Origin: a virus | Taxonomy: Duplodnaviria; Heunggongvirae; Uroviricota; Caudoviricetes | Virus record (IMG/VR): IMGVR_UViG_2660238352_000008 | Length of the DNA stretch: 9,862 nucleotides | Direction: 5' to 3' (one strand) | Shown: piece after piece, positions 90 through 5,868 of the stretch | Position numbering within the stretch: position 1 is the stretch's first letter | Layout of the letters: each line of letters starts with the position of its first letter | The notes under the pieces: model-generated | Database searches by the model: none | What the model saw: the letters and a program-made list of their open reading frames with translations, nothing else | What the model was told of the DNA's origin: nothing | Made by a program: the position numbers and the translations under genes

Positions 90-2873
90 TTACCTATCCG
101 TGGAAATTAACCTTTGCAGCACTGATGAGGCCCAGTTGCGCCATTCCACTTTATTCCCGTTCAGCATCTCCGTGATGTTATTCACCATCCCTGAGATACC
201 CTCCGTCGCAAGCTGTGCTGCCTGTGAGGCGTAATCGGACGCATTATCCACCCAGTTACTGAGCCCCTCCTGCAAGCCTTTCTGCCAGTCCGCACGCTGC
301 ACATCCGATTCGGCATAAAAGGCTGCCTGGTCCTTAAGGCGTTCGCTCAGATACTGCGCGTTCTGTGCCCGTGCCTGTCTGTAAAAATCCTCACTGATAT
401 CCCCGGCCTGATACTGAGACTGAAGGTCCGCATCCTTCTGGCGGAAGCTGTCGCGGATCTGCTGCAACTCCCGCATGCGTTCCCTGGCTCGTTCTCCCTG
501 CCCGTACCCCAGCAGTTCGGCTTCATTTGATGCACGCGCAGCCACATTATCATTCTTCAGGGTCTCTTCCCGGGATCGCAACTGTTCCCGGATTTTTTGC
601 TGGTCAATCAGGGCCGCGTTACGCAGCAGTTCCTGCTTCTGCATCTCCGTCAGGGTTTTCAGTTCGCCCTGCGCAGTCTGGTACTTCAGCTTCACCAGCT
701 CTGTATTCTGACCCGCCAGTGCCAGTTGCTCTTTCTGCTGCTTCAGTAGCCGGGAAAAACTGTCTTCCGCTTTTTCCGTCTCTGATTTTCCACCCCGGGA
801 TTTAGGTTTGTTCGCCTCGTTATTACGCCAGGCTTCCAGAGCATTACTGATATAACGCTGTCTCGCCTCCTGATACGAATCCCCCACAAAACCAAGGTCA
901 TCCGCCGCATACCCCAGCCGGGCACGCTCTTTTTCCTCCCCCTTCAGTCGGGACAGGGCCAGCTCACGTTCTGTTTTTGTCAGGGCGCTCTGCTGTTTAT
1001 CATCCAGGGTGGCCTGCGGCAGCCGTAACGGTACATTCACCAGTCCCTGACGCTGCTGAAGCAGTTCATTCCCCAGCCCCAGCAGACGGTTGAATTCCGT
1101 ATGCTGGCCGTTCATGACCAGCAGTGACTGATACGCTTTATTCTGCTCTGCCGCCTGCTGACGAATTAACGCCACACGGCGATCTTCCAGTCCGGCAAGC
1201 ACATCCTGAATGGACTGCGCCTTTTCCTGCATCTGTGCCAGACGGGACTGCTCAACAGCAAGCTGCTCTGTTGCCTGAGCAAGCCCTTCCGTTACAGTTT
1301 TCACCGAGGTCAGATGGTTTATCATGAATCCGTCACCGGTCGTCCAGCCCGGGTTCGCCAGAACATACTGATATCCTGCGATTTTTTCCTGCAGGGATTT
1401 CACCCGACTGGCCTGTTCATCAATCAGCCGGTTCTGCTCTGTCAGCGCCGCCCGTGTTCGTCCTTCATTATCTGAGGCTTCAGGCAAAGACATTGACGGC
1501 GTTTTATGCGCGATTTCATCTATCGTCAGTGCATACTGGCGCGCTGACTCCCTGGCCTGCTCCTGATTCTGGTACAGCGTATACCATGCTGCTGCCCCCA
1601 GCATCACCAGTCCGGGTACGCCACCAACCAGTCCCAACGCACCAGTCATCAGACGTGAGCCCACCGCCGTTGTACTGTTCAGCGCATTCTGGGCTGCGGT
1701 TCTGGCAGCAATATTTCTGTTCAGGCGTTCCTGTGTGGCCGCCAGACGGGCTTCTGCAGCAATCTGCATCTCCGTCCCGCGGGCTGCCGCCACAGCCTGC
1801 TGTGCACGGTACACGGCTGCCCTTGCCCGCGCCGTGGCAATCTGCGTCCCCCTGAGCTGTGCTTCCGCCAGTGCCACTTCATTACGTGCTGCCGTCACAA
1901 GTCCTGCCGTGGCAGACACCGCTCCGGAGGCCATATTGCCAAAGTACCGGGCAACCCCGACGGCAACCAGCGCACCCACGGCTGTTGCCACATTATCAAT
2001 CTGTCCGGCAACACCGTTCAGCACGCCGGAGAGCGTTTTTGTCACCCCGCTGGCCTCATTCGCGCCACCCACCCAGGCCATAAAGGCGTTTTCCACCTTT
2101 GTGATACTACCGGAAACCGTTTCCGGCATGGCCGCATATTCATCACGCAATACCCCCAGCTGGCTGATTAACGCAGGGACCACTTTATCCGCCGTCAGTT
2201 TGCCGTCGTCCGCCATCGCCTTAAGGTCTTTACGGGCCACGCCCATACCCGCAGCCAGTGCACGTACGATCCGATCTCCGCTTTCATTGACCGAATTAAA
2301 TTCCTCACCGCGTAACACCCCCTGTGCCAGCGCCTGGCTGAACTGGGTGATCACCGAGCCCGCCTCTGCCGTACTGGCACCGGAGATTTTCAGCCCCGTG
2401 GAAATGGCCTCCGTCACCTTCAGTACATCACCGGCACTGTAGCCATATTCACGCATTGAGGCTGCCGAGCGGGCAAACAGGGCCGCATTATCTGAAAATG
2501 CCGTGCCCGTCCGCTGGCTGATATCCATCAGCACTTTCTGTGATGACGAAAATTCATCGGATGACTGCGACGCCTGTTTCAGTCGGGCATTCACGGAACT
2601 CCATTCATCGGCCAGAGAAATCAGGTGCCCGGTGGCAAAGGCACCTGCAAATGCCCCCGCCGTTCCGGCAACTGAAGCGCGGATTTCCGTCAACTGGCTG
2701 TTCAGCTCAGCCAGGGCGCGTCGCTGCTCCCGGGCGACTGCGGCAGCCTGACGCCCGCCATTCTGCAGGGTCCGGTAATATTCACTGCCCATGCGGGCAG
2801 CCCGCTGGATCTCCGACTGGAATGACTGCGAATTTGCCGAAATTTTGATAATCAGTTCACGTAACGTCGCCAT
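90..2873 (-). CDS. phage tail tape measure protein (lambda-family type)
   Basis: 927-aa ORF. ATG at 2873..2871 is preceded by a GGAGAAAGG Shine-Dalgarno; stop TAA at 92..90. Ala/Gln/Glu/Arg-rich helical composition with Gly/Ala/Val-rich hydrophobic stretches (e.g. [50 protein letters not shown]). It is the largest ORF and lies directly after the G/G-T chaperone pair, the canonical tape measure position. Confidence 0.9.
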
Positions 2874-2891: not shown

Positions 2892-2912
2892 AAAAAAACC
2901 GCCTCAGCGGTT
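2892..2912 (-). terminator. intrinsic-terminator-like hairpin plus U-tract between G-T stop and tape measure start
   Basis: Minus-strand reading AACCGC-TGAG-GCGGTT followed by TTTTTTTA: a 4-6 bp GC stem, 4-nt loop, and a run of 7 T. It starts 3 nt after the G-T stop and ends 20 nt before the tape measure ATG. Confidence 0.4.
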
Positions 2913-2920
2913 CTCATCAT

Positions 2921-3600
2921 TCATGACTGTGCTGCAAAGCTCAGCGCGTCTTCCAGCGCCGCAAACGGATCCACCTCCGGCTTATCCTCATCCTCGCCCC
3001 AGCAGAGCATGGCGTCCTTCAGTGCAACATTCATCCCCTGTGCCCCGAAAACCGCTTTCACGATCTGTGCATTACGGATATCCCCGCGCTCATCACCCAG
3101 CGGGGATACCCTGTCGAACTCCATCCACATCATCGCCTCGCTCGCACTCAGGCTGTGCCGCAGTTCGGATAACGTGCGCCCCAGACGGAGCGCAAGTCGC
3201 ATCAGAAAGCGTATTTCCGGGCGGGCTACTTTTTTCTGGCCGCCTCTCCATCGGCGATCAGATCCAGTGCCTGACGCAGCAACCGGGCATGTACCGGACC
3301 ATAGACGACCAGCACCTGCTCCCGATCGTCCGCAGTGAACACCCGCTGCAGATCCGTATCACACAGCACATCGCAGAACAGCGTCACATCCGCTTCCAGA
3401 TTACGGCGGGTTTTCGCCACCACCGACAGAGGTTCGTCACCCGTATCACCGTCATTAAGCACTTCCCGCCACAGATACCAGGCCTCTGCCGAAGGTTCCC
3501 GCAGCACCACGCTGACATTTTCCCATTCAGGCACCCGCACCGTTTTATGGCGAAACCCCGACAGTCTGGCCAGTGCCAGTGTTTTCAGATCCTTTTTCAT
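2921..3600 (-). CDS. tail assembly chaperone G-T fusion, made by -1 programmed ribosomal frameshift near the end of G
   Basis: The -1 frame stays open from the slippery site (3229..3235) through 2921 and reads ...KKVARPEIRFLMRLALRLGRTL...FAAQS, stop TGA at 2923..2921. This matches the conserved G/G-T arrangement between major tail and tape measure genes in lambdoid phages. Confidence 0.6.
3226..3600 (-). CDS. tail assembly chaperone (lambda gpG-like)
   Basis: 124-aa product starting MKKDLKTLALARL. The start is placed at ATG 3600..3598 (AAGGGGA SD upstream, 14 bp after the major tail stop) rather than at the track's upstream ATG 3648, which overlaps the major tail gene. Ends ...ADGEAARKK with TAG at 3228..3226, overlapping the A_AAA_AAG heptamer. 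Confidence 0.75.
   Translation of the reverse strand: MKKDLKTLALARLSGFRHKTVRVPEWENVSVVLREPSAEAWYLWREVLNDGDTGDEPLSVVAKTRRNLEADVTLFCDVLCDTDLQRVFTADDREQVLVVYGPVHARLLRQALDLIADGEAARKK
3229..3235 (-). other. slippery heptanucleotide A_AAA_AAG (-1 frameshift site for G-T)
   Basis: Minus-strand sequence GCC AGA AAA AAG TAG: the heptamer A AAA AAG sits immediately before the G stop codon. Shifting -1 here enters the open T frame. Confidence 0.6.
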
Positions 3601-3614
3601 GATGACTCGTCCCC

Positions 3615-4331
3615 TTATCCGGCTGCTGCGCTCACAGTCACGGTGCATTCAACAGACGTCACACTCTGTGCCCTCTCTGCCGAATCGGTCACCACGCAGG
3701 TATATTTCCCCGCATCAGCGGACTGCGCACCTGGCTTACTGAAGGTGTCTGTCGTCTGCCCGTCAACCGGCTGACCATCCTTCTTCCAGGCGTATTTATA
3801 CGGCGGCGTTCCCCCGTTGGCACTGACTGACATTGTCAGCAGCGCACCGGTATTCACGGTAAGTGTCTTATCCAGATTTTTCCCAAACGCCAGCGGTACC
3901 ACAAAGGACACCGGTTTGCCTTTCAGACGCAGTGAAAACGTTGCTGCCACCACGCCGTTGGTACCGGATGACCAGGTGTGCTGACGCACTTCCGCCAGGA
4001 ACTTAAAGCCCTTACCGGACGGAAACAGCACCTTAAACGCATACAACGCGTCATTGTCATAGGCATCACGCAGGGCGTTCTGGGCCTGATTCAGATAAAA
4101 ATTACCCGACATGGAAATCTCGGACGACGCCCCCAGACCGTTGATGTTCTCCTGCTCTGTGGAGCAGAGCGTGGTCACATCAATATCCTGTTTCTGACCG
4201 GCGGTGAACTGGACTTCCTTGATAGTGCAGTCCAGGCGCAGATATTCCGCCTTATCCATAGTTTCAGCAGTCGCCGGGGCAGATGAAATCATCACCTGCG
4301 TCAGCTGTGAGCGTTCATACAAAGCAGACAT
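3615..4331 (-). CDS. major tail (tube) protein with C-terminal Ig-like domain
   Basis: 238-aa ORF with a perfect AGGAGG SD 8 nt upstream of ATG 4331..4329. Sits between the neck genes and the G/G-T pair. The C-terminal ~85 aa (...PPYKYAWKKDGQPVDGQ...GKYTCVVTDSAERAQSVTSVECTVTV) has the W...D...Y-x-C pattern of Ig-like (I-set / Big_2-like) domains. Confidence 0.8.
   Translation of the reverse strand: MSALYERSQLTQVMISSAPATAETMDKAEYLRLDCTIKEVQFTAGQKQDIDVTTLCSTEQENINGLGASSEISMSGNFYLNQAQNALRDAYDNDALYAFKVLFPSGKGFKFLAEVRQHTWSSGTNGVVAATFSLRLKGKPVSFVVPLAFGKNLDKTLTVNTGALLTMSVSANGGTPPYKYAWKKDGQPVDGQTTDTFSKPGAQSADAGKYTCVVTDSAERAQSVTSVECTVTVSAAAG
3618..3884 (-). other. Ig-like domain at the C-terminus of the major tail protein
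   Basis: Residues ~150-238 of the major tail protein, with the motifs YKYAWKKDG and GKYTCVVTD. Domain boundaries are approximate. Confidence 0.55.
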
Positions 4332-4368: not shown

Positions 4369-4397
4369 GTATGGGTTTTGTAGAAAAAAAGAAAAAG

Positions 4398-5541: not shown

Positions 5542-5868
5542 TCATAACACCGTCGGACAACGCAAATCGTAAATCAGCACGGAAACAGAAAACGGCAACT
5601 CCCCCTGCACGAGGTCTTCCCGCTCCGCAAGATCCGGATTCCGGTACAGCATCCCGGTCAGTCGCATGGCAGCCCCCTTCATCCGGGTTAATGCCTCACC
5701 CGGGATCAGTTCACCGTCCTCACGAATCACTTTATCCCGGCTGCCCTGAATGTAGGCCAGCAGCACGGCGGTAGCCTGACGAACCTTGTCCATCAGCATG
5801 TCATCATCCGCGTCATGGTCGACACGCAGATGTGCCTTGATCTCTTCCAGTGTCAGTAATGCCGTCAT
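5542..5868 (-). CDS. head-tail connector / adaptor protein (HK97 gp6-like)
   Basis: 108-aa ORF. The N-terminus MTALLTLEEIKAHLRVDHDADDDML matches the characteristic L-x-E-x-K-x-H-L-R-V-D...D-D motif of gp6-like connectors. AGGAG SD 9 nt upstream; ATG 5868..5866 overlaps the portal stop TGA 5867..5865. Confidence 0.8.
   Translation of the reverse strand: MTALLTLEEIKAHLRVDHDADDDMLMDKVRQATAVLLAYIQGSRDKVIREDGELIPGEALTRMKGAAMRLTGMLYRNPDLAEREDLVQGELPFSVSVLIYDLRCPTVL

Follow-up and report, generated by a model that had tools for sequence, protein, structure and literature searches.

How a tailed phage comes to make two products from its tail assembly chaperone gene G, one of them extended by the T frame that follows, is the question raised by the end of gene G in a 9,862-nucleotide (nt) stretch of Caudoviricetes DNA, IMG/VR record IMGVR_UViG_2660238352_000008, the whole of which is referred to here as the window. 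The end of G very probably holds the -1 programmed ribosomal frameshift site of the G/G-T chaperone pair of an HK97/lambda-like siphovirus prophage of Escherichia coli, and this reading is directly supported by the sequence anatomy, the protein families, the conserved -1 relation of the two frames, the conserved position of the slip and the selection acting on the linker that follows it. We infer ribosomal slippage at this site and a role of the G-T product in tail assembly. The site is already known and catalogued and is not new: ECs1801, a close homologue from the Sakai O157:H7 prophage Sp9, defines the cluster A_AAA_AAG_25 of 53 genes, marked as true, whose product is 124 amino acids (aa) long in the zero frame and 226 aa long after the shift (Sharma et al. 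2014, NAR 42:7210, PMC4066793), and the same cluster is GeneTack programmed-frameshift cluster #10. The G gene of the window, with the heptamer A_AAA_AAG and products of the same two sizes, belongs to this cluster.

Anatomy of the slip site

All coding sequence in the window lies on the minus strand, where the junction reads GCC AGA AAA AAG TAG GCC CGC CCG GAA ATA CGC TTT CTG ATG. An earlier note on this DNA, made from the letters alone, had the G open reading frame (ORF) ending in AGA AAA AAG TAG, and this is what the minus strand carries. The heptamer A_AAA_AAG at 3235..3229 is in the shift-prone phase, as tandem -1 slippage requires, and is followed directly by the zero-frame stop of G. After a slip of -1 the frame would read AAA AAA GTA GCC CGC and remain open for 102 sense codons until the TGA at 2923..2921, close to the roughly 100 codons that the note had counted to the same stop, and the predicted shifted G-T product has 226 aa. 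The 102-residue T extension after the slip point begins VARPEIRFLMRLALRLGRT. A stop codon in the -1 frame between the heptamer and 3202, which the note had named as fatal to its own proposal, was looked for and none is present; the -1 frame in the window is open from 3358. The span 3202..3240 that the note had assigned to the element is a loose box, reaching from the codon ahead of the heptamer context to the first ATG in the T frame.

Gene G extends from ATG 3600 to the TAG at 3228..3226. The start is placed at ATG 3600 because of its good pairing with the anti-Shine-Dalgarno (anti-SD) sequence, -8.4 kcal/mol compared with -3.3 kcal/mol before ATG 3648, and because residues 1-124 align on positions 1-124 of the Pfam profile; the upstream ATG 3648 given by a mechanical ORF list was rejected on the same two grounds. 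The sequence AAAAAAG is found four times in the window, with 0.98 copies expected and four copies reached in 4 of 200 shuffles. As this bare count is not significant, the weight of the heptamer comes from its context. The copy at 3235..3229 is the only one in the X_XXY_YYZ phase at the end of a gene. The copies at 4385 and 7969 were rejected as slip sites since they lie on the non-coding strand, and that at 9369..9363, within the capsid gene, is in the AAA_AAA_G phase (P-K-K-A) and is not shift-prone.

Protein families and gene order

The full length of G matches the Pfam family PF06222 (Phage_TAC_1) with an E value of 3.6e-56, and G also matches PHROG 344, annotated as tail assembly chaperone. 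The T extension matches PF06223 (Phage_tail_T, the lambda gpT family) in Pfam over its residues 28-98, with an E value of 6.1e-19. NCBIfam holds no model that matches G or T. The family PHROG 14766, whose 224 positions span both G and T, aligns with G on positions 2-122 and with the extension on positions 125-224, and as the two map side by side on it, the junction implied by the heptamer is also the junction implied by this family. The window carries the pair of families of the HK97 type, PF06222 and PF06223, collinear with PHROG 14766.

The gene order is major tail protein (4331..3615), G (3600..3226), T frame (3229..2921) and tape measure protein (2873..90), with two overlapping ORFs between the major tail and tape measure genes, an in-phase slippery X_XXY_YYZ sequence inside this overlap, close to the 3' end of G, and a downstream ORF that lacks initiation signals of its own, its first ATG having no Shine-Dalgarno (SD) sequence and its linker being under coding selection. 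The proposal of the earlier note that this is the G/G-T recoding arrangement is supported on every count: where the pair lies, how its frames relate, the heptamer, the families of the two proteins and the comparison with other loci. The G/G-T tail assembly chaperone recoding arrangement of tailed phages is reportedly the subject of work by Xu, Hendrix and Duda from 2004. Over its whole length the window shares about 98% identity with lambdoid E. coli prophages, and long-tailed Stx1, Stx2c and Stx2a phages are about 95% identical to it in the G-T region.

Selection on the linker and the internal ATG

Nine codons, encoding V-A-R-P-E-I-R-F-L, separate the slip site from the first T-frame ATG. Among 29 representatives these codons are conserved as protein in the -1 frame, with Pro kept in 100%, Phe in 97% and Val in 90%, while synonymous variation is free: Pro is encoded by CCG, CCC, CCA and CCT and Phe by TTC and TTT. 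The nine codons lie outside any other ORF in this clade and contain no start codon. Relatives likewise lack an upstream start codon, and their -1 frame is blocked by a stop 0-5 codons ahead of the heptamer; because of this nearby stop, the T frame of several relatives opens at the slip site itself. As the linker codons are conserved as amino acids and belong to no other ORF, they are translated in the -1 frame, and on the evidence of the sequences the linker would be translatable only after a frameshift, with no upstream start able to begin its translation.

The in-frame ATG at the end of the linker, which encodes the Met of an F-L-M motif, is the start of a separate 93-aa T in public annotation. 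No SD sequence precedes it, the anti-SD pairing energy of -3.5 kcal/mol being equal to the window-wide background (-3.7 +/- 2.7 kcal/mol), whereas the nine other gene starts in the window have values of -5.8 to -12.8 kcal/mol.

Conservation of the arrangement in related loci

A survey of 360 loci was assembled from annotated phages and from IMG/VR scans with the window G and the reconstructed fusions of HK97, mEp390, Pm34 and P7641. T could be located in 357 of these loci and is in the -1 frame relative to G in all 357. The loci contain 93 distinct junction sequences, of which 92 were classified as A_AAA_AAG (26), G_GGA_AAG (38), G_GAA_AAG (20) or A_AAG followed by a stop (8). The slip motif is always located 11-13 T-frame codons ahead of an LALR(L/M)G(R/K)T motif, and it is adjoined by a stop in 25 of the 92 classified junctions. 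Among close loci the heptamer A_AAA_AAG is present in 83 of 83, and in close relatives the overlap of G and T available for a slip is only 7-22 nt and the heptamer is nonetheless kept. The same heptamer is also found, independently, in phi467, Pm34, OS31, Bcep176, TXDOH and PHB09, and it recurs in Burkholderia and Bordetella phages with 29-33% identity in G despite their GC-rich codon usage.

A sub-clade around Klebsiella phage P7641 (L089 and seven further unique junctions) has no heptamer at the slip position, where only A_AAG followed by TAA is found (GCA AAG TAA), and its -1 frame opens 7 nt before the stop. The sequences suggest either single-tRNA P-site slippage beside the stop or reliance on an ATG four codons downstream in this sub-clade. 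Public assemblies also hold in-frame G-T fusion ORFs of the family (P0001, P0002 and P0003). These were rejected as annotated slippage products and are indel variants: in P0001 a 13-nt deletion joins ...ARKK to EIRFLM, and P0002 and P0003 have changes in the length of the A-run. Errors in homopolymers or in assembly, or mutations of the prophages, probably account for all three.

Candidate stimulatory elements

The earlier note had advised a search for a stimulatory structure downstream of the heptamer. Nothing significant was found close by, the nearest stable hairpin lying 35 nt away. Folds of the 45-111 nt after the heptamer are no better than those of shuffled sequences (z of +0.4 to -0.9, the 45-nt and 79-nt windows among them), and only the 70-nt windows of this clade reach z values of about -2 to -3, with an outer stem that is not kept in other clades. 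RNAalifold returned no consensus structure for 28 diverged representatives, and Rfam gave no match to a frameshift element in the window.

The nearest hairpin, at 3175..3194, lies within the T coding sequence, 8 nt after ATG 3202. The wobble positions of its stem are unusually uniform and fall on otherwise rare codons (GCG in 25 of 29 representatives, CTC in 20 of 29 and GGG in 22 of 29), with the Arg codon of the loop free; about 20 of 28 diverged lineages keep to such codons there. Base pairs are kept in 79.6% of cases with essentially no compensatory change, and the hairpin is absent in 8 of 28 representatives, including OS31-like, Burkholderia and Bordetella members. Because of the lack of compensatory change and these absences, we do not count the hairpin in the signal. 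Any effect of it might be long-range, for instance if a leading ribosome paused there, one ribosome-length in front of the slip site, or might consist in masking ATG 3202.

Upstream of the heptamer, the SD-like GGAGAGG arises from a single C-to-G difference (G3248) and is found only in the window and in one near-identical locus; 81 of 83 close loci read GCAGAGT, GCAGAGG or GCTGAGT in its place. There is also no conserved SD in cluster A_AAA_AAG_25 (PMC4066793). The element is real in the window, although the close loci do not share it; from its sequence it may be a local enhancer of frameshifting in this prophage only. In E. coli reporters A_AAA_AAG alone gives 0.29% frameshifting, compared with 4.3% in the presence of the IS911 stimulators and 39% with the IS3 pseudoknot. 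Perhaps the native context sets the G:G-T ratio, through the abutting UAG with a release factor competing with slippage, through GGAGAGG and/or through the hairpin at 3194..3175, an idea that we regard as rather unlikely.

Alternative explanations

Several points weigh against a programmed ribosomal frameshift at this site. The -1 frameshifting of cluster A_AAA_AAG_25 is graded by Sharma et al. as 'safely inferred', and the 130-nt 'hairpin' index of the cluster is 0.020, under the threshold of 0.09 (PMC4066793). Neither folding nor RNAalifold revealed a conserved stimulatory structure 5-9 nt downstream of the heptamer, and with the heptamer alone the efficiency could be only about 0.3%, judging by the reporter figure. 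The in-frame ATG nine codons past the slip is conserved in 28 of 28 aligned representatives, every inspected record of a close relative annotates T as a separate coding sequence, with a 'tail assembly protein T' in both PGAP and GenBank annotation, and in OS31, TXDOH, PHB09 and Bcep176 the stop of G overlaps the ATG (TGATG or ATGA), a layout typical of translational coupling, which is possible there. These last observations would suit a free 93-aa T that is translated from ATG 3202, whether ribosomes initiate there de novo or reinitiate after terminating at the stop of G, 24 nt upstream, with the heptamer irrelevant or of minor effect. We consider this very unlikely, for the ATG has no SD sequence and pairs at background level, the nine codons before it keep their -1-frame amino acids while varying synonymously, lambda lacks a Met at this place in the same register, and both PHROG 14766 and the annotated HK97 fusion cover G together with T. 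The overlaps of stop and ATG follow from the Leu-Met codons CTG ATG, which when conserved necessarily contain TGA in the G frame, and they are therefore not independent evidence.

The same product would also arise by transcriptional slippage, in which RNA polymerase adds one A in the A6 run and normal translation then enters T. An extra A gives an identical protein (...RKKVARP...), so that protein data cannot separate the two mechanisms, longer runs are present in relatives (A7 in Pm34 and A8 in phi467), and polymerase slippage is covered as an alternative source of frame changes in PMC5009743. A run of six is, as a matter of general knowledge, on the short side if E. coli RNA polymerase is to slip efficiently, however, and the phase of the heptamer is conserved, which is relevant to ribosomes and not to the polymerase. 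Transcriptional slippage is disfavoured because homologues carry G_GGA_AAG, G_GAA_AAG or A_AAG at the same place, with no long homopolymer, which fits re-pairing of tRNAs, and we hold it to be extremely improbable. That the heptamer is the chance Lys-Lys end of G, followed by a decaying and unexpressed remnant ORF, would agree with the insignificant bare count of the heptamer in the window. This explanation has next to no chance of being correct and is effectively refuted by the conservation data: the -1 ORF contains a strong Pfam domain, the arrangement is kept in 357 of 357 loci with T located, down to 29% identity in G, and the codon choice for Lys-Lys is fixed at A AAA AAG, with even the GC-rich phages of Burkholderia keeping to it.

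Proposed mechanism

In the programmed -1 frameshift that we favour, most ribosomes would translate G and terminate at the UAG at 3228..3226 to release the 124-aa product. A minority would move back by 1 nt at A_AAA_AAG as tRNA-Lys exchanges its pairing with AAA AAG for AAA AAA, and would then read GUA GCC CGC and add 102 residues to give a 226-aa G-T protein with a C-terminal lambda-type T domain. On the lambda model, the tape measure protein would be coated by G and by the G portion of G-T, the T portion would recruit the major tail protein, and the low ratio of G-T to G would then matter for assembly.

Features of the window

The coordinates of the features discussed here are collected in Table 1.

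Table 1. Location of the G/G-T slip site, its surroundings and the flanking tail genes in the window
Feature	Coordinates	Strand	Basis
Major tail protein gene, 238 aa, directly upstream of G	3615..4331	-	Pfam Ig_3, Ig_2, I-set; annotated 'major tail subunit' in relatives
Gene G, tail assembly chaperone, 124 aa + TAG	3226..3600	-	PF06222, PHROG 344, anti-SD pairing
SD-like GGAGAGG, 7-10 nt 5' of heptamer	3243..3249	-	anti-SD pairing -7.5 kcal/mol
Slippery heptamer A_AAA_AAG	3229..3235	-	zero-frame AAA AAG are the final two sense codons of G
Zero-frame stop UAG of G, immediately 3' of heptamer	3226..3228	-	sequence
T extension in -1 frame, 102 sense codons (first GTA 3229..3227) + TGA 2923..2921	2921..3229	-	PF06223, PHROG 337, PHROG 14766
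Linker V-A-R-P-E-I-R-F-L, slip site to first T-frame ATG	3203..3229	-	protein-level selection in -1 frame
In-frame ATG, Met of F-L-M motif, annotated start of separate 93-aa 'T'	3200..3202	-	annotation
Hairpin U-GCGCUCC-GUCU-GGGGCGC-A in T coding sequence (codons A-L-R-L-G-R)	3175..3194, stem 3193..3176	-	folds
Hairpin and U-run, intrinsic-terminator-like, between T stop and tape measure start	2892..2915	-	fold -10.8 kcal/mol
Tape measure protein gene, 927 aa, directly downstream of G-T	90..2873	-	Pfam Phage_HK97_TLTM (E 5e-90), TMP_3, Tape_meas_lam_C

The major tail protein has an Ig-like domain (Ig_3, Ig_2 and I-set; residues ~151-227) fused in frame at its C-terminus, and the tail tube families Phage_TTP_11 and Phage_tail_2 score just under threshold. 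The terminator-like hairpin and U-run at 2892..2915 are kept at this position in relatives, with four different stem sequences, and the HK97 record annotates putative terminators in the matching region. Late transcription must pass through this hairpin. A match to the Rfam family RF01394 (isrK) was rejected, as its score of 27.1 bits is below the threshold of 50, it consists of the terminator hairpin only, and the genomic context is wrong: the expected place is downstream of a Q-like antiterminator gene, with isrK in Gifsy-1 lying after antQ.

Among the head genes, the portal ORF at 5865..8612 on the minus strand encodes 915 aa, of which only residues 54-382 match Phage_portal, and the remaining C-terminal residues, about 530, match no Pfam family above threshold. 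The portal gene is annotated as a 'frameshifted' pseudogene in the closest E. coli record and encodes 859 aa in Sakai Sp9. An ORF of 73 aa at 8779..8558 overlaps the start of the portal ORF by 55 nt. The minus strand of 8824..9862 encodes the C-terminal 345 aa of a large capsid gene upstream of the portal gene; the Sakai record labels this capsid gene 'phage prohead protease', whereas PGAP calls it 'phage major capsid protein'. The order of capsid before portal is unusual and is common to Sakai-type lambdoid prophages.

Significance for annotation

The inspected records of close relatives, including RefSeq PGAP annotation and Sakai, give G and the 93-aa 'T' as two genes and omit the 226-aa fusion. 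The practical value of the present analysis is an annotation fix that joins G to T through a -1 slip at 3229/3230. Few recoding events in nature are probably as frequent as G-T frameshifting, which sets the chaperone ratio needed for a tail of the right length. A modest question that follows is what tunes G-T sites, given that A_AAA_AAG alone yields about 0.3% in reporters compared with about 3% at the native lambda site.

Comparison with known systems

The closest known system is ECs1801, whose G is 87% identical to that of the window, a divergence of about 13% at the amino acid level, and which has the same AGA AAA AAG TAG GCC CGC context, the same product sizes of 124 and 226 aa and the same gene order. 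The window differs from it in having G rather than C at 3248, which creates the SD-like GGAGAGG, and in the -1 frame being open for 41 codons upstream of the slip, compared with 5 codons in ECs1801.

In HK97, gp13 and gp14 (NP_037708/NP_037707) are annotated as 'translated due to a -1 frameshift', and the annotated 224-aa product agrees with the fusion reconstructed here. As in the window, the G part of HK97 falls in PF06222 and the T part in PF06223, with 62% identity in G and 59% identity in T to the window, and the HK97 slip site likewise lies 11 codons before LALR(M/L)GRT, in a pair of genes that likewise stands between the major tail and tape measure genes. HK97 differs in its non-canonical heptamer G_GAA_AAG, where P-site re-pairing needs G-U, in a G that runs 5 codons past the slip site and in a moron (gp15) between T and H. 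The homologues in HK106 and Bcep176 are also annotated with a -1 frameshift.

The earlier note had likened the site to that of E. coli dnaX (gamma/tau). The heptamer A_AAA_AAG is indeed identical, as is the tRNA-Lys re-pairing logic, but the likeness fails for the flanking stimulators. In dnaX a conserved SD-like element upstream and a stem-loop about 6 nt downstream are associated with very high efficiency (PMC6771820, PMC5009743), whereas in the window the SD-like element is not conserved and no stable stem-loop of the dnaX type was found 5-9 nt downstream. The shifted product is the shorter one in dnaX and the longer one here.

The lambda pair, gpG and gpGT, likewise involves a shift of -1 at a heptamer of the Lys type close to the end of G, and its synteny is the same. 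The T part of lambda belongs to the same family, PF06223, with the domain starting at residue 29 after the slip compared with residue 28 here, and its FxLxLAxxxGR motif lies at the same offset as in the window T. BLASTP of the window G and T extension against lambda G and T found nothing significant; it is the shared Pfam profile and register that link the extension to lambda T. Lambda G falls in PF06894 (Phage_TAC_2), whereas the window G matches PF06222 and not PF06894, and relative to lambda only the T part is homologous. Further differences are the lambda heptamer G_GGA_AAG, a lambda G that runs 5 codons past the slip, a lambda T with no Met at the position of ATG 3202, and a fusion product of 279 aa compared with 226 aa in the window. 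The work on lambda (Levin, Hendrix & Casjens 1993; Xu, Hendrix & Duda 2004, 2013, 2014), as summarised in PMC5009743, established that both G and the scarcer G-T are made and that both are needed for tail assembly, at a native G:GT ratio of about 30:1. Carried over from lambda (PMC5009743), the ratio of G to G-T would set the chaperone stoichiometry in the phage of the window as well.

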